From a virus (Duplodnaviria; Caudoviricetes): DNA of 64,000 nucleotides. The DNA is taken from positions 416,001-480,000 of IMG/VR virus record IMGVR_UViG_3300037484_000435; one strand, 5' to 3'. Positions 23,297 to 63,832 of this stretch are shown in pieces. How positions within the stretch are numbered: position 1 is the first letter of the stretch; every line of letters begins with the position of its first letter. Made by a program: the position numbers and the translations under genes. A model generated the notes under the pieces. That model did not search any database. It was not told the DNA's origin and saw only the letters and a list, made by a program, of their open reading frames with translations.

Positions 23297-23359
23297 ACCC
23301 GATTACTATCTAACTATAGATCCTATGAAGGGTTAGTGGGATACTAACTAGGATCTATA
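23297..23359. repeat. Dispersed hairpin element, copy 1
   Basis: ACCC..TATAGATCCTA-tgaagg-GTTAG-tgggata-CTAAC-TAGGATCTATA. Confidence 0.7.
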
Positions 23360-33765: not shown

Positions 33766-33828
33766 ACCCAAATACTCTTCATTAAACTATAAATCCCTTT
33801 ATAGGGTAAGTGGGACTTACTATAAAGG
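33766..33828. repeat. Dispersed hairpin element, copy 3
   Basis: ACCC..TATAAAT-CCCTTTATAGG-GTAAG-tggga-CTTAC-TATAAAGG. Confidence 0.75.
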
Positions 33829-34199
33829 TATTGATATTAGAAAGCACGCAGAGGCGATGGGCGGTGGAGAAGTCGGGTTACCTATCCCTAGGTGCCTGCT
33901 TCTCCCCGATCCCCATTTAACAACTTTGCCAAAAGCTGTAAGGCTTATCGCGATAGCCTAGTAGTTTTTTGGCCGAGGTAACTACCAGACCTCATTTGGG
34001 GCCAAGAACATCCAAAAATTTTTTAAACACAGGGGCCATAATACCAAGGACTTGTACCCCCGACTCAATCTTTTGTGTGATTGAAGTATTTGAGTCAGAG
34101 CAATCCATATCTGCAGCACTAAGTATTATCCTGTTTGTATCTGATAATAAATTACGTTCAATTTTGTTTTTGTCCATGTTTGTTTATTTAACTCCTGAT

Positions 34200-34680
34200 T
34201 TTTTGGGGAGGTGGAGTTAGTGGTCCTCGTCTTATCTACCTCCCCTACGCGCGGTGGAATGTTGCTGTGACTTGCTTTCCTCCCATCACAGGGTTCTTAG
34301 CCCACAGCAGAGCACCCTAAAAATGCGTGGCTTATTGCTAACACCCCAAACGATTTAACTGCTTCCATCGTTGGGTGCCACCACCAAGAAAAGTTGGAGC
34401 AGCGGGAATCGAACCCACTAGTTACGGTGTTCCACCATTAACACCGAGAATTTGCTCCGCTTCAAAGTCCAATCCAATCGAGACGCCCAGTGGTCGACTT
34501 CACTAGGCGTGGTGGGACTCCTCTAAGTGCTCCTCCCATGCACGACGGCGATGCTGGGTGTGGCTATCTGCCAGACCTCTAGAGCCGTTTCAAGGGAGGG
34601 GGTCGAGAGGAGTCCCGAGTTCTCAGTAACTATACTATCCCGACTATCCGGTGGGATCCAGAGAGGTAAGGGTCTGAGAA
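34200..34680 (-). ncRNA. Structured RNA region containing a tRNA-like module
   Basis: 11-bp perfect stem 34514-24/34606-16, stem 34621-26/34674-79, several further hairpins in 34205-34380 and 34483-34510. Confidence 0.5.
34394..34459 (-). ncRNA. tRNA-like element lacking an anticodon arm (66 nt)
   Basis: CGGAGCA/TGCTCCA acceptor stem (C:A at first pair), one 7-bp arm CGGTGTT-AATGGTGG-AACACCG, canonical T arm GTGGG-TTCGATT-CCCGC; CCA not encoded. Confidence 0.6.
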
Positions 34681-34861
34681 AACCTAACCTCAATGGTCCT
34701 CCGCCGATTAGGGGAGGATTTAGCATAGCCTTTAGAACCGGCGCTGTTAAAGTTTGTTGTTTTTTCATTAGAGTATTTACTTAGGGCCAGTCCATTTTAT
34801 AACTCCTTTCGTTTATGCGTAAACGGTGGGACTACCCACCTACCAAATCAAAAGGTAAAGA

Positions 34862-34919
34862 TCCTAATACTTATCATTTGTACTATAAATCCATTGGGTT
34901 AGAGGGTACTAACCAAAGG
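34862..34919. repeat. Dispersed hairpin element, copy 4
   Basis: TATAAAT-CCATTG-GGTTAG-agggta-CTAACC-AAAGG. Confidence 0.7.
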
Positions 34920-35054
34920 ATTGTATAGACTGCACATGGCACGCACGTAAAAAAAATAAACGCGCGTATTAAACCATTATTCCTTAAATATAACGGGTGA
35001 CACGTGCGTGCGTCACCCGTTATAGTAACACAAGCTGGGGGAGGGAGGGACCAA

Positions 35055-35213
35055 TTAGAGATACCTCAACTCAGCAAGAGATTCGATCCTGTCCGGATGA
35101 AAATCTTCCAAGTCACTACGTTCCTGAGAACCAAAGAAATCGTAATCCTCGCTGGAGATTGTGCGACACTTCTCTTCGTTCTCTGCCAACTCTAATTGGT
35201 CTCGATAGTACAT
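35055..35213 (-). CDS. 52-aa acidic peptide
   Basis: AGGAG RBS, ATG 35213, MYYRDQLELAENEEK..LAELRYL; not in the ORF track. Confidence 0.55.
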   Translation of the reverse strand: MYYRDQLELAENEEKCRTISSEDYDFFGSQERSDLEDFHPDRIESLAELRYL

Positions 35214-39384: not shown

Positions 39385-40197
39385 TCACACACTGGTTATA
39401 CAGTTTGCTCTGAATCTACATTTTTTGTTATTGATAGCTTTTTTACTTCGTCGGGGTAAAAGTCGCTGAAGATCCTCAGAAGATAGATTAAAGTTTGTTA
39501 GAAGAATAAATTCCTCTGATATGCCCCAATGGGTTTCGTGTTTGACTTGGTCTGGGTTTAATAAAAACTTTTCAACAAGATCATATTTACGTTTCATGAA
39601 GAGTTCAGCATCTGTGTAAATCCACCTACAAAAGTCAATTGCCACAGAACCTCCATAATGCAGACGATAACAATTGTAACCTTTGTCTTTAAAGACACTC
39701 ACCTCGTTGTTATTTATTTCTCGGAAATGAGCTGCGACCCACTCCAACACCCATCTCGTGCTGGTAATACAAAGATGAAGGTCTCTTTGTCGGCAGGAAT
39801 CATCCACATTGCTTAATCCCCCATCACCATCAAAATAACCACGAATAAAATGTTTTATCATATCTGGTGGTAAATTTTTTGGTGGCTTAAGAGAAAGACT
39901 TTTGTTATTGTGTATACCAAAAGCGTTCAGTTGCTCGCACAGCTTCCTACTGTTAAAGGATACATGAGCAAAATCAAACGATTTTATCCCCGCATTGCCC
40001 CAAGTTTTGCGTTGTGTGTATTTAGTAATAGGTCGAGATGGTTGAATCTGATCCCTAATTACCCTAACTGTGTTTCTGTCCTTCGCTGATAGGTAAACTG
40101 AAACAGAACGATTATACTTATCTATAGACCCATCCGCGGCCAAAAAACCAAGTAGGTAGGCTTTATTTTGATGATCAATCTTACTGAAATCTAACAT
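39385..40197 (-). CDS. Free-standing LAGLIDADG homing endonuclease
   Basis: Two motifs, YLLGFLAADGSI and FIRGYFDGDGG. Confidence 0.9.
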   Translation of the reverse strand: MLDFSKIDHQNKAYLLGFLAADGSIDKYNRSVSVYLSAKDRNTVRVIRDQIQPSRPITKYTQRKTWGNAGIKSFDFAHVSFNSRKLCEQLNAFGIHNNKSLSLKPPKNLPPDMIKHFIRGYFDGDGGLSNVDDSCRQRDLHLCITSTRWVLEWVAAHFREINNNEVSVFKDKGYNCYRLHYGGSVAIDFCRWIYTDAELFMKRKYDLVEKFLLNPDQVKHETHWGISEEFILLTNFNLSSEDLQRLLPRRSKKAINNKKCRFRANCITSV

Positions 40198-47012: not shown

Positions 47013-48204
47013 AAAATTTTTTAACTAACTTAGTTTTTAGAGTAAGAAGTTAAAAATTTTAATGATGAGGTGATCTCAATTTGTTAACCTACAAATTCAG
47101 AATGTATCCAACAAAAATACAACAGGCAAAGCTCTGGAAACATGCAAATTTGTTGAATCGGCTTTACAATTACTTCCTAAAACAACGTTTAGAAGCATTT
47201 GAAAAGAATGAGCCAAGAATTTATCGCTATCAGCAACAGGCTGAATTGGTTCAATTAAAAAAGGATATCCCAGAGATTAAAGAGATCCATGCTCAAGTTT
47301 TACAACAAGTTCCGTTAAGATTGGATAATGCTTATACCGCGTTTCTTAAGAGAATCAAATTAAAACAAGGAAAGCCTTGCTATAGGAGTTGCCACAATTT
47401 CTTTGGAATTACTTATCCTCAGAGCGGGTACAAAATAACTAAAACAAGTCTCTGCACAAAAGCATATGGAAAAATAAAACTTTTCCAGCACCGAGGAGTT
47501 ATTGGAGAAATAAAACAAATCAAAATAATTTGCAAAAATGAGAAGTGGTTCGTATGTGTAACAACTGACCACAGGTTACCAACTTCTACCTCTGGGTCTA
47601 GAATGATTGGTTTAGATTTAGGTATTGCTAACTTGGTAGCAACCTCCGAAGGGGAAATTATACCCAATAGAAGTCACGCACGTTACTTTAATAAACAAAT
47701 CAACAAACTGAGATCACATCAGGATAAAAAATGCAAAAAAAACTCAAGGAGGCATAAATTTCTTTCTAGGTCTATTAGTAAGTTGTATGGTGCAAAAGTT
47801 AGAAAAACAAATGATTTTTTGCACAAGGTGTCTAGACGCCTAACCCTAAAATATGATACAATTGTTATTGAAGACCTTACACTGAAGAAGATGTCGGAAT
47901 CTAATATTAGAGGGTTAAACCGCGAATTGCGGAACAGTTGCTTAGCACGATTTATATATTACTTAAGTTACAAAGCCGAACGTTTAATAAAGGTTAATCC
48001 TATGAATACTTCCAAGATGTGTAATCGTTGTGGCCGTATTCATGATATGCCTTTATCAAAACGTACATTGGTTTGTGAGTGTGGAAATGTTGTAGATCGA
48101 GATGTTAATGCAGCTCAAAACATACTTTGCTTGGGACGAGCCTATTTATTAAATTTAATAGATAGTACTGCGATACTAACGCAGGAAGTGCTTGCACAGT
48201 TCAC
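47013..48204 (+). mobile_element. Non-autonomous IS200/IS605-type element carrying tnpB
   Basis: Left hairpin 47013-26/47048-60; right-end-like CAGGAAG..GTTCAC ending at 48204; opposite strand to its neighbours; no tnpA; left boundary approximate. Confidence 0.6.
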
Positions 48205-48244
48205 TAACCCTTCTTTCATGAAATATAACCTTAAAGTAGGGTAA
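47081..48244 (+). CDS. tnpB: RNA-guided endonuclease TnpB
   Basis: YKFRMYPT HTH, RuvC-I IGLDLG, RuvC-II VIEDL, zinc finger CNRCG..CECG, RuvC-III DRDVNAAQNI; catalytic residues intact. Confidence 0.95.
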   Translation: MLTYKFRMYPTKIQQAKLWKHANLLNRLYNYFLKQRLEAFEKNEPRIYRYQQQAELVQLKKDIPEIKEIHAQVLQQVPLRLDNAYTAFLKRIKLKQGKPCYRSCHNFFGITYPQSGYKITKTSLCTKAYGKIKLFQHRGVIGEIKQIKIICKNEKWFVCVTTDHRLPTSTSGSRMIGLDLGIANLVATSEGEIIPNRSHARYFNKQINKLRSHQDKKCKKNSRRHKFLSRSISKLYGAKVRKTNDFLHKVSRRLTLKYDTIVIEDLTLKKMSESNIRGLNRELRNSCLARFIYYLSYKAERLIKVNPMNTSKMCNRCGRIHDMPLSKRTLVCECGNVVDRDVNAAQNILCLGRAYLLNLIDSTAILTQEVLAQFTNPSFMKYNLKVG

Positions 48245-53185: not shown

Positions 53186-54280
53186 TTAAGCAAACTCTGT
53201 TCCTTTCCCCTTCGCGTGTCGGTCCTCATACGCATCGGATTTGTATTTCAAAATGACACGCCCAAATGCTGGGTCGTATCTTTCTTCCTGGGGTCTTATA
53301 ATTACACCCTCACTCATATGAGCGGATTCGGGTGGCATTAGTTGGGTGTTCTGGTTTGCACACTCCTTCATCCCTTCTTCGCTATAAGGTCCCACATAAA
53401 CGATTGGAACAAACTCTACATTGTGTTTGCGACACCAATCTTCAGCTTCTTGCCAGTTTAGGAATTTCCCATCCACACTAATATCGAACGCTCGATAGGC
53501 TAGTTCATTGTTGCGTCCGTATTTAAGGTCCTGCACACGACCAAATATTTCACCATAAACTATGACCGCATGTGCATGATAGGTAATCCTAATTTCCTCT
53601 AACATAGGCTCGACCAACTTAAGCGGGTATTGATAGAGGCTCAACTTCTTTGGGTCACCTTCTACAGGGTCCACATATTTCTTTCGTGTGTTGTGGGAAC
53701 CAATCATGTATATTAGGTCATCCCCGTCTTGAATCAAACCTACCTTTGAATTCGTGCCATGAATTTTTTCTTCGTAGCATACTAGTTCACCCCGTGTGAA
53801 TAAGTCAGGATAATTCCTCCAGTTCTCAACATGAGAGTAGTTAGTAAACAAAGGGTGGTCTTGTTCTTGGTCCCCAGAGTTTGGGACTAGTGGTTGTACA
53901 TATTTTGTTATGCCCAACTGTTCGGAAACTTCTTGTCCTACTTCAAAGTCCCAAACATTTGAGGCCGCTATCCCAAAGCTGAACTCTTGACGAAGTTTCA
54001 CCTGCCCAACACGGTTCCCCTTCTTCAAGTATTTTACAACATCGAGTTGCTCAGCCAATTCTTGCGGGAGAACAGCGTCAGGTGGAATAAAAACCCTTAA
54101 TTCACCTACCTGTGGATTCGTATCTTTATGTGTGCATACCTGCCAGCCCATAATTTCAATTAACAATAAGTTATCTGCATTTGGGTGCGGTTTTACTTCC
54201 TTTATAGGCACACAACGAACAATTAGACTACTTGGCATATATACTCCTTGAGAGGTAGGTCCCCCATAACGAGGGACCAC
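53186..54280 (-). CDS. ATP-dependent RNA ligase, DRB0094/Rnl2-like
   Basis: HPNADNL N-domain; motif I EEKIHGTN, VYGEIFG, YRAFDI, EGVIIR, ILKYKS. Confidence 0.9.
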   Translation of the reverse strand: MVPRYGGPTSQGVYMPSSLIVRCVPIKEVKPHPNADNLLLIEIMGWQVCTHKDTNPQVGELRVFIPPDAVLPQELAEQLDVVKYLKKGNRVGQVKLRQEFSFGIAASNVWDFEVGQEVSEQLGITKYVQPLVPNSGDQEQDHPLFTNYSHVENWRNYPDLFTRGELVCYEEKIHGTNSKVGLIQDGDDLIYMIGSHNTRKKYVDPVEGDPKKLSLYQYPLKLVEPMLEEIRITYHAHAVIVYGEIFGRVQDLKYGRNNELAYRAFDISVDGKFLNWQEAEDWCRKHNVEFVPIVYVGPYSEEGMKECANQNTQLMPPESAHMSEGVIIRPQEERYDPAFGRVILKYKSDAYEDRHAKGKGTEFA

Positions 54281-54975: not shown

Positions 54976-55995
54976 TCATGACGGTACCCCGATCCACGAC
55001 CAGCGCCAACTTGAGTATGTTTTGAAATTACAGTCATTTGGTTTAATCTTTTGACTCAGGCGCTTGCCTGTTTTTAAATCGTGTAAACTCAATCGATCCC
55101 CCTTATACCCCCCAATATAAGTTAATTGATATGTAGGGTGTTTAATTATACTACCACGCTTAAATCCCAAACTCATCGTGCTCCCGTAACGTTCGGGATT
55201 GCCTCCCTTCTTTAAATGAAATCGATGAAGTTGCCTGCGGTGAAATCGTAAAAATTCAACTCTTAGAATTCTTGTCATTGGGTTTAAATTCTTACTAAAG
55301 AAAAGTTCTGTTAAACAATGAGAGTCGACATTATGGGCTTCCCAAGACTCTTCTAACTTGTTTGTGGCCTTTCTAAATTCTCTTTTTTCGCGATGTTTCT
55401 TTGTGGCAGATCCAAGTATTTTATAAAAACCAAACCTTTCTGTAAAAAATTCATATAACCAAGTTTTACCAACCTCCAAGTTACTAAAAGCATCATTCCA
55501 TTTCGAATGTCCTTTCTTAGTGAAAGCTTTAATATCTTCAATGATAATATCCGTGATTGGTAAAATCTTGTTAAGCCAACTCACTAAACGAATCTTTGTT
55601 TGCCATCTGGCTTTTATTGAGGGTGGCAAAAAAGCCTTGTTTTTTCCCTTGTAGGGATTAGGTTTTCTACAAGGTGTTTTACGTGAACGTCTGGCTTTAC
55701 GCATGTCTCGTCGTGTAGACATAGACTCACTCACCCAATCAGGGGTATTAGTGAGAATGTTTAGCACTACTTGTTTTTCTGTTGCAACCGTATAGGCCTC
55801 CCGCTTGGATCCTGTATCTATCCCAACTACAACTTTCTGTTTTTTATCGTCAGATGGTTCAGTATTGAGCCTTACACAGAATATTCCTCTCTTCCAAAAC
55901 GGAGTTGCTTTACCTAATTTAATCCATCGTCTGGCCCTAGAAGGAGTTGTAGGCATTAAAGGGTTTTGCTCTTTGTCAATTACTGGAACTAACAT
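54976..55995 (-). CDS. isrB: IsrB (HNH-less IscB-family OMEGA nickase)
   Basis: PLMP domain, RuvC-I GIDTGSK, bridge helix RRDMRKARRSR, RuvC-II IIIED, RuvC-III HNVDS; no HNH insert; 339 aa. Confidence 0.85.
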   Translation of the reverse strand: MLVPVIDKEQNPLMPTTPSRARRWIKLGKATPFWKRGIFCVRLNTEPSDDKKQKVVVGIDTGSKREAYTVATEKQVVLNILTNTPDWVSESMSTRRDMRKARRSRKTPCRKPNPYKGKNKAFLPPSIKARWQTKIRLVSWLNKILPITDIIIEDIKAFTKKGHSKWNDAFSNLEVGKTWLYEFFTERFGFYKILGSATKKHREKREFRKATNKLEESWEAHNVDSHCLTELFFSKNLNPMTRILRVEFLRFHRRQLHRFHLKKGGNPERYGSTMSLGFKRGSIIKHPTYQLTYIGGYKGDRLSLHDLKTGKRLSQKIKPNDCNFKTYSSWRWSWIGVPS

Positions 55996-57973: not shown

Positions 57974-59131
57974 TCATCCTTTAACTACTCCTATCGGTGT
58001 TAACTTGGTCACAATCTTAACAAGGTCCTTTTGGTTTTCCATCACAGACTCAATATCCTTGTAAGCACCAGCAGCCTCGTCTAAGTCTTTCTCGTGGCGA
58101 ATCCCATGAACAACACCCAGATCATCCAGACGTTTAATTTCGTCCGCAAGATTTAAATTCTTTTTAGCCTGATTACGTCCCATCTTGCGTCCCGCACCGT
58201 GGCTACAACTATAAAAACTGTCGGGATTACCTAATCCCTCTACAATGTAGCTCGATGTCCCTTGGGAGCCTGGGATGATGCCAGCCTGTTTCTCTCGGGC
58301 AGAGGTCGCCCCCTTGCGATGTATATAAAGTTCCTTTCCGCCTATCTTTTCCAGCGATGCATAGTTATGTGCTATGTTGATGGGTTCTTGGAACTTCACC
58401 GGAGCGATTACTTCGAGAATGGCTGCCTCTACTTGATCTGCCATGACCTGTCGGTTCTGAAGGGCAAAGTCCACAGCATACTGCATTTCCAGAAGATACA
58501 GGTCGAAGTTAGGGTCTCCTTGCTCGAAGAATGCAAGGTCCCAACTTGGAGGTATGGGGTAGCCAGCCTTTTGGTTCTGGTCTTTAGCAATCTTATTATA
58601 GTGATCTGCGATCTGTTTTCCAAGATTTCGAGAACCTGAGTGGATCATATACCAGACATAACCATCTGAATCTACTTGTAATTCGAGGAAGTGGTTTCCA
58701 CCGCCTAAAGTACCTAATTGCACAGTAGCCTTTGGAAGCTCATGCTTGATAACAGGTAACTTATCAGGTGGTTTGTTTAACGGAGCAACACTGCTTTTGT
58801 GCCAATTGAATCCTACGGGCACACGCTGGCGAATGTTACCCATGACCGCTTTTACCTGATCACGTGTTATCTCTGTTATGCCTGTCTTGCACGCAAGCAT
58901 TCCACATCCAATATCAACCCCCACGGCATTCGGAATTACGACATTATCTAAAGCAATAACTCCACCTATTGGCATCCCAAAACCTTGGTGGGCATCGCTC
59001 ATGACCGCCACATGGTCAAATGCGAAGGGCAATTGGGCGAGGTTATCCACTTGAGTTCTGGCTCCTAGTTCTAGGTCAGGGCACCAACTGAAAACGGGAA
59101 CCCGATAAGTTTCTTTCTTGAATATATCCAC
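57974..59131 (-). CDS. rtcB: RNA-splicing/repair ligase RtcB
   Basis: MSDAHQGFGMPIGG, NAVGVDIGCG, GTLGGGNHF, HSGSRNLG, HRKGAT, SCSHGAGR. Confidence 0.97.
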   Translation of the reverse strand: MDIFKKETYRVPVFSWCPDLELGARTQVDNLAQLPFAFDHVAVMSDAHQGFGMPIGGVIALDNVVIPNAVGVDIGCGMLACKTGITEITRDQVKAVMGNIRQRVPVGFNWHKSSVAPLNKPPDKLPVIKHELPKATVQLGTLGGGNHFLELQVDSDGYVWYMIHSGSRNLGKQIADHYNKIAKDQNQKAGYPIPPSWDLAFFEQGDPNFDLYLLEMQYAVDFALQNRQVMADQVEAAILEVIAPVKFQEPINIAHNYASLEKIGGKELYIHRKGATSAREKQAGIIPGSQGTSSYIVEGLGNPDSFYSCSHGAGRKMGRNQAKKNLNLADEIKRLDDLGVVHGIRHEKDLDEAAGAYKDIESVMENQKDLVKIVTKLTPIGVVKG

Positions 59132-62830: not shown

Positions 62831-63832
62831 TCAATCCAATACTCGGTCTGCCATTTCCAAAACACTTTCTTTAGTCTTCGCTCGTGCTTGAAAGCGGGCA
62901 CGATGACAAAAAACAGCGTCAGGTAGACCAGTAATCCTTGCAAACTCTGGACCTTCTTTGCCCGCCCAATCAACGGGGAGCAATTTCTTTGATGCAAACC
63001 TATCCCCTGACTCAGGAACAGATTGAATAACCCAGTTGTTTGCGGATTCATCAAAGAATACTACAAACAGAATTTCTGGGTATCTAGCAACAGTTTCCCC
63101 CCACATAGCATGTCGCTTAAGTATAAGTAATCTTGGGTCATTTTGCCTAGATGTCTCAATAGCACGCATTACTAGGTCTTGGTCAGTAACCCAGTAACGG
63201 GCCTTCTCAATCTCCCGAGTTAATATGCCTTGAGCTTGTTCTACTGTTTCCATAAATTGTTTATAGAGTATAGCGTCTATCTCGTTTTGAGATTTTCCTA
63301 CAAATGAAGCAGAGGGTGAGATGAACCCTGCGATAAAAGATTGCAGGTCGTATACTCGGTAAGGGGTGTGCGGTGTGTAAGTATCGGTTCCACAGTCAAC
63401 CGCGTCGATACTAGATAGAAGCTTATCATCTATCCTATTGAAAATTTTTTCATCCCCCACAAATTCTGGCCAGAAATGCTTCCCGACCAAGCCTACAGAG
63501 GCGTAAGGCCTACCGTCAGGGCGGGCCAAAGTAAAGTCGGGCATGTGATGATCGAAATCGGTTGGTGGGGCATATTTCATCCCTACATCTACTCGTATAT
63601 CGGCTGTCTGTAATAATTCTTTATCCCGAGTACGAATAACATCAGATTGCGGGTGCACTAGCAAAATTATAGCAACCGCAAAAATATCATCGGCGTGTGG
63701 TGTGCCGTTATGTGTAGCAATTAAAGTCAAAGGTGTATCCATCTGTTTAAATTTGGCTAAAGCTAGTCCTAATACAAGACCGATCCCGATTAGGACTAGC
63801 ACCGACGTAATCTTCTCAATTGTTTGTTTCAT
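62831..63832 (-). CDS. MYG1-family exonuclease with N-terminal hydrophobic anchor
   Basis: THNGTPHADD, RTRD..RVDVG, FDHH, YASVGLV, AVFCHRARF. Confidence 0.88.
   Translation of the reverse strand: MKQTIEKITSVLVLIGIGLVLGLALAKFKQMDTPLTLIATHNGTPHADDIFAVAIILLVHPQSDVIRTRDKELLQTADIRVDVGMKYAPPTDFDHHMPDFTLARPDGRPYASVGLVGKHFWPEFVGDEKIFNRIDDKLLSSIDAVDCGTDTYTPHTPYRVYDLQSFIAGFISPSASFVGKSQNEIDAILYKQFMETVEQAQGILTREIEKARYWVTDQDLVMRAIETSRQNDPRLLILKRHAMWGETVARYPEILFVVFFDESANNWVIQSVPESGDRFASKKLLPVDWAGKEGPEFARITGLPDAVFCHRARFQARAKTKESVLEMADRVLD

Follow-up and report, generated by a model that had tools for sequence, protein, structure and literature searches.

The minimal substrate of RNase P, RNase Z and the CCA-adding enzyme consists of an acceptor stem stacked on a T arm, the T loop and the elbow. 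For mascRNA at the 3′ end of MALAT1 and for the tRNA-like/pre-miRNA units of murine gammaherpesvirus 68, the flanking RNAs obtain their ends through cleavage by RNase P or RNase Z. YrlA RNA combines a Ro60-binding helix with a tRNA-like domain in circularly permuted order. Good documentation of tRNA-shaped cut marks comes mainly from organelles, with a few transcripts of eukaryotes and herpesviruses besides. The t-elements of plant mitochondria are derived from tRNAs, carry the motif GGTTCRANYCC as defined by Forner et al. 2007 (PMC1920247) and have no encoded CCA; they are cut by RNase P and RNase Z and tailed with CCA, and they are not aminoacylated (PMC1920247, PMC11658184).

We found a 66-nt element of comparable anatomy in a megaphage. 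Like the t-elements, it has a non-canonical cloverleaf that appears to be tRNA-derived, carries the GGTTCRANYCC motif in its T arm, lacks an encoded CCA, is unusable for decoding, and lies next to an mRNA within what we infer to be a longer transcript. The t-elements are encoded by organelles and their RNA ends have been mapped, whereas the phage element is a singleton known from its sequence, and the two share no sequence homology. Both mascRNA and the gammaherpesvirus units are likewise tRNA-like modules of a longer non-coding transcript (a putative one in the phage), but they come from eukaryotes and an animal virus and retain an anticodon stem, albeit a short one. The phage element is probably either a cut-here signal or a tRNA mimic. 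We favor the reading that it is a tRNA-derived, cis-acting processing signal for RNase P and RNase Z, to which we assign a probability of roughly 40%.

Genome context of the element

The stretch of DNA analyzed here, referred to as the window, comprises 64,000 nt (positions 416001-480000) of the 545,322-bp IMG/VR virus record IMGVR_UViG_3300037484_000435, a phage from sediment. All coordinates are those of the window unless given as genome positions. The GC content of the megaphage is 42%, and the standard genetic code fits its ORF statistics. ARAGORN finds 40 tRNA genes in the 545-kb genome, clustered at 0-82 kb and 515-545 kb with a single one at 394 kb. The element maps to 450.4 kb of the genome. 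Like the surrounding genes it is on the minus strand, and ARAGORN with default settings calls no tRNA or tmRNA inside the window. The initial annotation had expected a tRNA caller to fail at the element, which is what happened.

Around the element lies an orphan-rich region, followed in the window by a set of RNA-repair and tRNA-maturation genes (Table 1). Just beyond the window end, at genome 480.9 kb (480894-481271, minus strand), a 531-codon frame with a PolyA_pol/CCA-adding domain (91 bits) encodes an enzyme of the CCA-adding type. By our own count, an encoded CCA is absent from about 14 of the 40 phage tRNA genes. Both the enzyme gene and these CCA-less tRNA genes argue for the processing signal.

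A tRNA of the amber suppressor type with a CUA anticodon is encoded at genome 47126-47202 on the plus strand and is labeled 'Pyl' by ARAGORN. Stop-codon recoding, which this tRNA suggested, was rejected as the ORF statistics give no TAG-specific sign. The genome also contains a single ORF of about 14,600 codons (288395-332293, minus strand), the neighbors of which have 5,054, 3,403, 2,539 and 2,161 codons.

Table 1. Positions of the tRNA-like element, its parts and the features around it (window coordinates unless stated otherwise)
Feature	Position	Strand	Basis or remark
Three-armed tRNA-like module, 66 nt	34394-34459	-	Sequence, local fold, descriptor against shuffled genomes
C1	34459	-	Opposite A72 (34395); mismatch
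Acceptor 5′ strand, GGAGCA	34458-34453	-	Pairs with UGCUCC (34401-34396); 6-bp helix
Linker AAUUCU	34452-34447	-	Between acceptor and D-like arm
Extended D-like arm	34425-34446	-	CGGUGUU (34446-34440), loop AAUGGUGG (34439-34432), AACACCG (34431-34425); perfect 7-bp stem, 8-nt loop
Linker UAACUA	34424-34419	-	Between D-like and T arms
Canonical T arm	34402-34418	-	GUGGG (34418-34414), UUCGAUU (34413-34407), CCCGC (34402-34406); 5-bp stem, G53:C61
Discriminator A	34394	-	Followed by CUUUUC; no encoded CCA
Strongly folding upstream RNA domain	34466-34700	-	z = -4.17; centroid structures; no coding signal
Downstream hairpins	34200-34392	-	About 34379-34341, 34308-34264, and 34245-34238 with 34212-34205; z = -1.51, moderate; precede ribosome-binding site of 61-codon gene
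Four-codon mini-ORF (M-D-W-P-stop)	34781-34795	-	Behind strong AAAGGAG; head of the non-coding stretch
Promoter-like element	34882-34917	-	Hairpin GGTTAG...CTAACC, then GGATTTATAGT from 34892; genome motif scan; direct repeats D4, D6
52-codon ORF	35213-35055	-	Upstream; strong hairpin after it
61-codon orphan gene P0003	33992-34177	-	AGGAG at 34196-34192; coding score 0.21
LAGLIDADG homing-endonuclease-like gene	39385-40197	-	Same orphan-rich region as the element
TnpB (IS605 OrfB) gene	47081-48244	+	Same orphan-rich region as the element
RNA ligase	53186-54280	-	RNA-repair/tRNA-maturation gene set
RRXRR/HNH protein	54976-55995	-	RNA-repair/tRNA-maturation gene set
RtcB	57974-59131	-	RNA-repair/tRNA-maturation gene set
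MYG1-type exonuclease	62831-63832	-	RNA-repair/tRNA-maturation gene set
Second unannotated tRNA-like element, 64 nt	Genome 34088-34151 (L034:389-452)	+	Outside the window; found by descriptor

Anatomy of the tRNA-like element

The initial annotation had described an acceptor stem in which C1 and A72 are mismatched, followed by a D-like arm and then a canonical T arm, with neither an anticodon arm nor an encoded CCA, and both the sequence and RNAfold confirm this anatomy. All 18 modeled pairs are intact, 17 of them Watson-Crick and one G-U. In one respect the element agrees with a canonical tRNA: the acceptor is stacked on the T arm, the T loop conforms to T54-Psi55-C56-R57-A58, and the G53:C61 pair is present. 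The loop AAUGGUGG of the D-like arm carries the GG that is expected to dock on the T loop. A canonical tRNA would have an anticodon arm with a 7-nt loop between its D arm and variable region, whereas here acceptor and T arm are separated by a single hairpin, the 8-nt loop of which has no U33. The score of the element also stays below the gathering threshold of the RF00005 clan.

In an RNAfold prediction of the 81-nt neighborhood, the three-way junction is both the minimum free energy and the centroid structure (-25.4 kcal/mol, z = -2.55). These three intact helices, the canonical T loop and the presence of a remodeled 7-bp arm rather than a simple deletion argue for the processing signal, as does the fit of the whole anatomy to a minimal substrate of RNase P, RNase Z and the CCA enzyme. 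The T arm keeps a pair probability of 0.99 even when 698 nt are folded together. In the same fold the value drops to about 0.21 for the acceptor and D-like stems, but bona fide phage tRNAs span 0.00-0.91 in this test, which is therefore not discriminating. The low value arises because UUCUCGGU (34450-34443) can pair with ACUGAGAA (34627-34620) in a competing long-range helix of 8 bp that cannot coexist with the D-like arm and that prevails in the ensemble predicted for the 698-nt transcript. It counts against the processing signal, although less so in view of the range seen for genuine tRNAs.

Comparison with known RNA families

At the Rfam gathering thresholds, no match is found in the window. 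When the region 33800-35200 was searched permissively (E up to 10), the best match on the element, and the only one, was tRNA-Sec with 15.7 bits and E = 7.5, against a gathering score of 47, and no match was returned for tmRNA, YrlA, mascRNA, GOLLD (RF01998), ROOL (RF03087), RNase P or intron models. A comparison with the YrlA and tmRNA covariance models had been proposed in the initial annotation; neither model matches the element.

Several candidate assignments were rejected. The element is not a tmRNA, as it is contiguous, has G3:C70 rather than G3:U70, and receives no tmRNA call from ARAGORN or Rfam; a tmRNA builds its tRNA-like domain from its 5′ and 3′ ends and has an internal tag reading frame and pseudoknots. 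The models RF01998 and RF03087 give no match, which dismisses the large phage RNAs GOLLD and ROOL. At an 80% threshold ARAGORN proposes a tRNA-Leu(UAA), a strained solution with mismatched stems in a different register.

YrlA (RF02553), like the element, has a tRNA-like domain with T and D arms that does not serve decoding. While YrlA is permuted and bears the Ro60-binding helix, the arms of the element follow in normal order and its acceptor end is open. The phage does possess a Ro60 (TROVE) gene, at genome 67.3-68.0 kb, with YrlA-like RNAs just upstream of it (65.6-66.3 kb; sub-threshold, 38 bits). The element is about 380 kb away from both, is not permuted and has no YrlA match at E up to 1, so that the Y-RNA-like role considered in the initial annotation loses ground and an assignment to YrlA or another bacterial Y RNA was rejected.

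Relation to tRNA-Gln

None of the 40 tRNAs of the phage itself is a clear parent of the element. A relaxed pattern of the T loop and the 3′ strand of the acceptor finds four loci in 185,579 species genomes, and the sole annotated tRNA among them is a tRNA-Gln(UUG) of a Bacteroidaceae genome. In a permissive blastn search against phages, the tRNA-Gln of T5-like phages is among the top three partial matches, with a non-significant E = 6. We aligned the element to the Bacteroidaceae gene (L032 788-861) and to gene t005 of the T5-like phage BSP22A.

Acceptor positions 2-5 are shared with both genes; in the Bacteroidaceae gene the agreement extends to positions 2-7. The weak 1:72 position, the UAAUGG core of the D loop, the CCGU-UAA junction and the UUCGAUU T loop are further points of likeness, and in both alignments the loop AAUGGUGG falls on the D loop. 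Compared with tRNA-Gln, about 14 nt are gone from the element, comprising the 3′ part of the D stem, position 26, the 5′ part of the anticodon stem and the anticodon loop. Seven extra nucleotides precede the D loop, and it is from these that the outer portion of the 7-bp arm is built. The change is a remodeling of the arm and not a simple deletion. The discriminator is A instead of G, and the element has no encoded CCA. From this sequence comparison, a tRNA-Gln-like origin followed by remodeling is suggested, and the isotype assignment is tentative.

Three bacterial MAG loci carry the same T-loop and UGCUCCA motif: L030:5476-5552 (Faecousia), L031:76-150 on the minus strand (Terracidiphilus) and L033:7560-7640 (a verrucomicrobium). 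ARAGORN calls no tRNA at any of the three motif loci, and a terminator hairpin follows the motif in Faecousia. They may be tRNA-like RNAs or pseudogenes.

Distribution and the second short element

Among the collections searched, the element is known from near-identical copies of the megaphage only. A blastn search with 34150-34850 against 50,697 phage records gave no match, nor did exact and gapped patterns of the element in viral contigs or two patterns of it in metagenome contigs. The exact 24-mer is absent from 185,579 species genomes, and therefore no attP copy of a host tRNA end was found. The closest large relative found by DNA polymerase (IMGVR_UViG_3300029286_000009; 259 kb, 52% identity) shows no BLAST match to the RNA and no covariance-model match to the element; it has no tRNA genes, and at 215104-215621 it encodes a 518-nt tmRNA with a 21-residue tag.

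The near-identical copies come from three sources. A 916-nt JGI contig from another sample (L029) contains the same RNA with one SNP in a loop, and a sediment DNA run contains the sequence at 100% identity. From an RNA-seq library of a different study, a 155-nt contig over 34260-34414 is about 95% identical; five bases are substituted and three are missing. As an assembled sequence, this contig shows no RNA ends, may derive from DNA and does not prove transcription; neither its stop at 34414 nor the uncovered parts in the DNA run carry evidential weight. The T loop and the 3′ strand of the acceptor are identical in it. Five of its changes cluster at 34281-34291, where the hairpin tip CCC-UGUGAU-GGG becomes CCUC-GUGA-GGGG, that is, a 4-bp stem with a GUGA loop. 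Such changes would fit a structured RNA whose hairpin tip is free to vary, for which they are thin evidence. Together with the precedent of the plant mitochondrial t-elements, the RNA-library contig speaks for the processing signal.

A second short element was found elsewhere in the genome (Table 1). Its acceptor, UGGUAAG/CUUACCA, is a perfect 7-bp helix, its T arm reads GAGGG-UUCGAGC-CCUUC, and again no CCA is encoded. Between acceptor and T arm there are 33 nt, not enough to hold a D arm as well as an anticodon arm. Neither ARAGORN nor Rfam (E up to 1) calls this element, and it occupies a 95-nt gap between two ORFs of the same strand, a punctuation-like position. As the two independent elements both have the enzyme-facing half of a tRNA and lack the decoding half, they constitute a weak argument for selection on that architecture.

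The main competitor of the processing signal is a dead tRNA gene, that is, a tRNA-Gln-like copy which lost its anticodon arm by rearrangement and survives without function in a fast-changing region of orphan genes. The element would then be nothing more than a leftover of the normal gain and loss of tRNA genes in a phage rich in them, for which 40 tRNA genes and the YrlA-like RNAs by Ro60 offer plentiful raw material for duplicates. That the element is a singleton with no conservation detected beyond near-identical strains, that both neighboring genes are orphans, and that its 3′ half resembles tRNA-Gln would all be expected of such a relic. However, all the modeled pairs of the element are intact and its T loop is fully canonical, and the arm that replaces the D and anticodon arms is a new perfect helix without a scar. 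The second element likewise keeps a perfect acceptor and T arm with too little between them for the two missing arms. On these grounds a dead gene appears somewhat unlikely, though it is a serious rival.

The leader and its coding neighbors

The element is part of a 603-nt stretch (34780-34178, minus strand) between the four-codon mini-ORF and the AGGAG/ATG of the 61-codon gene P0003. The ORFs in 34200-34800 have dicodon coding scores of -0.04, -0.16 and -0.09, compared to 0.21-0.42 for P0003, P0001, the 52-codon ORF and RtcB, and none of these spurious ORFs is on record as a gene. The 621-nt region as a whole has a fold z of -4.4, and the genome background has a mean of -0.52, a standard deviation of 1.17 and a minimum of -2.97. 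In the initial annotation the element was said to be embedded in a larger structured RNA. This holds on the upstream side, where 34466-34700 folds unusually strongly (z = -4.17), whereas the downstream side (34200-34392) is weak (z = -1.51). Within the upstream domain, a perfect 11-bp helix (34616-34606 with 34524-34514) closes a rod, and there is also a hairpin of 10 bp (34510-34483).

Ahead of the mini-ORF stand a hairpin and a strong AAAGGAG site. Further upstream, the promoter-like element consists of a GTTAGT...ACTAAC-type hairpin followed by GGAT(T/C)TATAGT, and the same arrangement recurs at window position 33796 (33786-33830) and near 23323 on the minus strand, ahead of minus-strand cassettes. 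These recurring units are likely a family of phage promoters. A simple scan found no minus-strand terminator in the leader from the promoter-like element to the 61-codon gene, and the leader probably forms one transcription unit with P0003, which would be its coding part. The non-coding surroundings, the strongly folding upstream domain, the promoter-like element and the lack of a terminator hit before the 61-codon gene together argue for the processing signal.

No homolog of P0003 is found among 5.8 billion proteins, and no relatives were found for the neighbor protein P0001 either; both are orphans. The mini-ORF and the 61-codon gene, 600 nt apart, both start with ATGGAC after AGGAGTTA. This shared start prompted us to consider a group I intron or mobile insertion that splits the 61-codon gene. 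The idea was rejected, as there is no match to an intron model, the direct repeats are weak, and the splice rules do not fit.

Proposed processing and other possible roles

A possible pathway is as follows. A leader or non-coding RNA of about 0.7 kb would start at the promoter-like element near 34880 and run into the 61-codon gene. Within it, a tRNA-derived mimic whose nearest relatives are tRNA-Gln would keep the parts read by tRNA-processing enzymes, that is, the 12-bp coaxial stack of acceptor and T arm, the T loop and, for the elbow, a D-like loop that could take part in it, having lost the decoding arm. RNase P might cut between 34460 and 34459, and RNase Z or 3′ trimming might remove the single-stranded, U-rich, CCA-less trailer that follows the discriminator at 34394. 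The released 66-nt RNA, unable to decode, could then be tailed by the CCA-adding enzyme of the phage itself. As a result, both neighbors would gain defined ends, the strongly folded upstream RNA at its 3′ side and the small downstream mRNA at its 5′ side.

Some observations count against this pathway. The RNA-library contig spans the predicted 3′ cut, though with only about 20 nt on the upstream side. The homologs are limited to near-identical strains and hence offer no covariation or proof of selection. In addition, a G stands before the predicted RNase P site and a C at position 1, a combination not known to be preferred by bacterial RNase P.

If the processing signal is real, large phages would organize non-coding and coding RNAs by tRNA-shaped cut marks. 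The element would also be another phage RNA design in which the enzyme-facing half of a tRNA is kept and the decoding half is dropped. Defined ends would moreover provide a handle on the function of the unexplained folded RNA of about 400 nt that adjoins the element. A wider proposal, which we regard as doubtful, is that the megaphage uses anticodon-less, three-arm tRNA-derived modules as RNase P/RNase Z punctuation, here freeing the strongly folded non-coding RNA and setting the 5′ end of a small early mRNA, with the CCA-tailed 66-mer possibly serving also as a tRNA-Gln-like decoy. The locus would then be a bacterial-virus counterpart of the plant mitochondrial t-elements and of the MALAT1/mascRNA arrangement.

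A trans-acting role of this kind has to be weighed in its own right. As a mimic or decoy, the freed 66-nt RNA would bind a reader of the elbow or the acceptor, such as a tRNA-targeting defense nuclease of the host, a modification enzyme or a synthetase, and would present no anticodon loop to cleave or use. It is compatible with the processing signal and not exclusive of it. The element does retain elbow-forming loops and an acceptor end with the anticodon arm gone; G2:C71, G3:C70 and the weak 1:72 pair resemble tRNA-Gln; and the phage is rich in tRNA and RNA-repair functions, among them RtcB, the RNA ligase, the CCA-adding enzyme and Ro60 with its YrlA-like RNAs. Yet no partner gene is adjacent, and the element is present in a single copy, where one would look for many copies or an array in the case of a decoy, which makes this role unlikely. 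The idea that LeuRS might charge the element as a minihelix, in view of A73 and the intact elbow, was set aside.

Since the tRNA-like fold and the helix 34627-34620/34450-34443 are mutually exclusive in the modeled ensemble, the leader might instead be a cis-regulatory switch that controls translation or stability of the 61-codon gene or the mini-ORF. The strong ribosome-binding site of the mini-ORF would suit such a switch, and so would the several GGAGG/CCUCC pairings in the leader, one of which lies just ahead of the ribosome-binding site of the 61-codon gene. But the alternative helix is a thermodynamic prediction, real tRNAs show similar competition, and no known riboswitch, T-box or ligand features were found by Rfam (E up to 10, 33800-35200). 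The switch appears quite improbable.

Search descriptors and chance occurrence

Three descriptors of different stringency were used to search the genome and locally shuffled versions of it. The descriptors were composed after the element had been seen, which makes them somewhat circular and the resulting numbers somewhat generous. The full descriptor demands that the T loop read TTCRANN, that the T stem have 5 bp including G53:C61, and that the acceptor stack directly on it; the total length must be 45-70, and there must be a hairpin with 6 or more base pairs and GG in its loop. In the 545-kb genome it matches this site only. In the simpler descriptor, every acceptor pair from position 2 to 7 must be Watson-Crick, the T arm must be canonical with a TTCRANN loop, and the length must be 45-70; it finds two genome sites, namely this element and the second one, and two sites occur in none of 100 shuffled genomes. 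The loose descriptor (TTYRANN loop, 5-bp T stem, acceptor of 6-7 bp) recovers most of the phage tRNAs and two unannotated short elements.

A mere chance resemblance is very unlikely, even allowing for the later construction of the descriptors: the loosest of them does yield about 0.65 short matches per shuffled genome, but the full descriptor yields 0 in 100 locally shuffled genomes and the simpler one a mean of 0.02 per shuffled genome, and the element lies on the sense strand of a non-coding region. The single genome match against none in the shuffled genomes, along with the second element in its punctuation-like gap, also argues for the processing signal. A covariance model built from the sequence of the element alone finds the element itself as the sole match in the genome, with 110 bits.

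The T-loop motif GGTTCGA(A/T)TCC occurs at two more sites outside annotated tRNAs, at genome 89224 and 516511 on the plus strand. The motif at 89224 has a good T stem and is preceded by GGGGAC, which recalls the 3′ end of a tmRNA.
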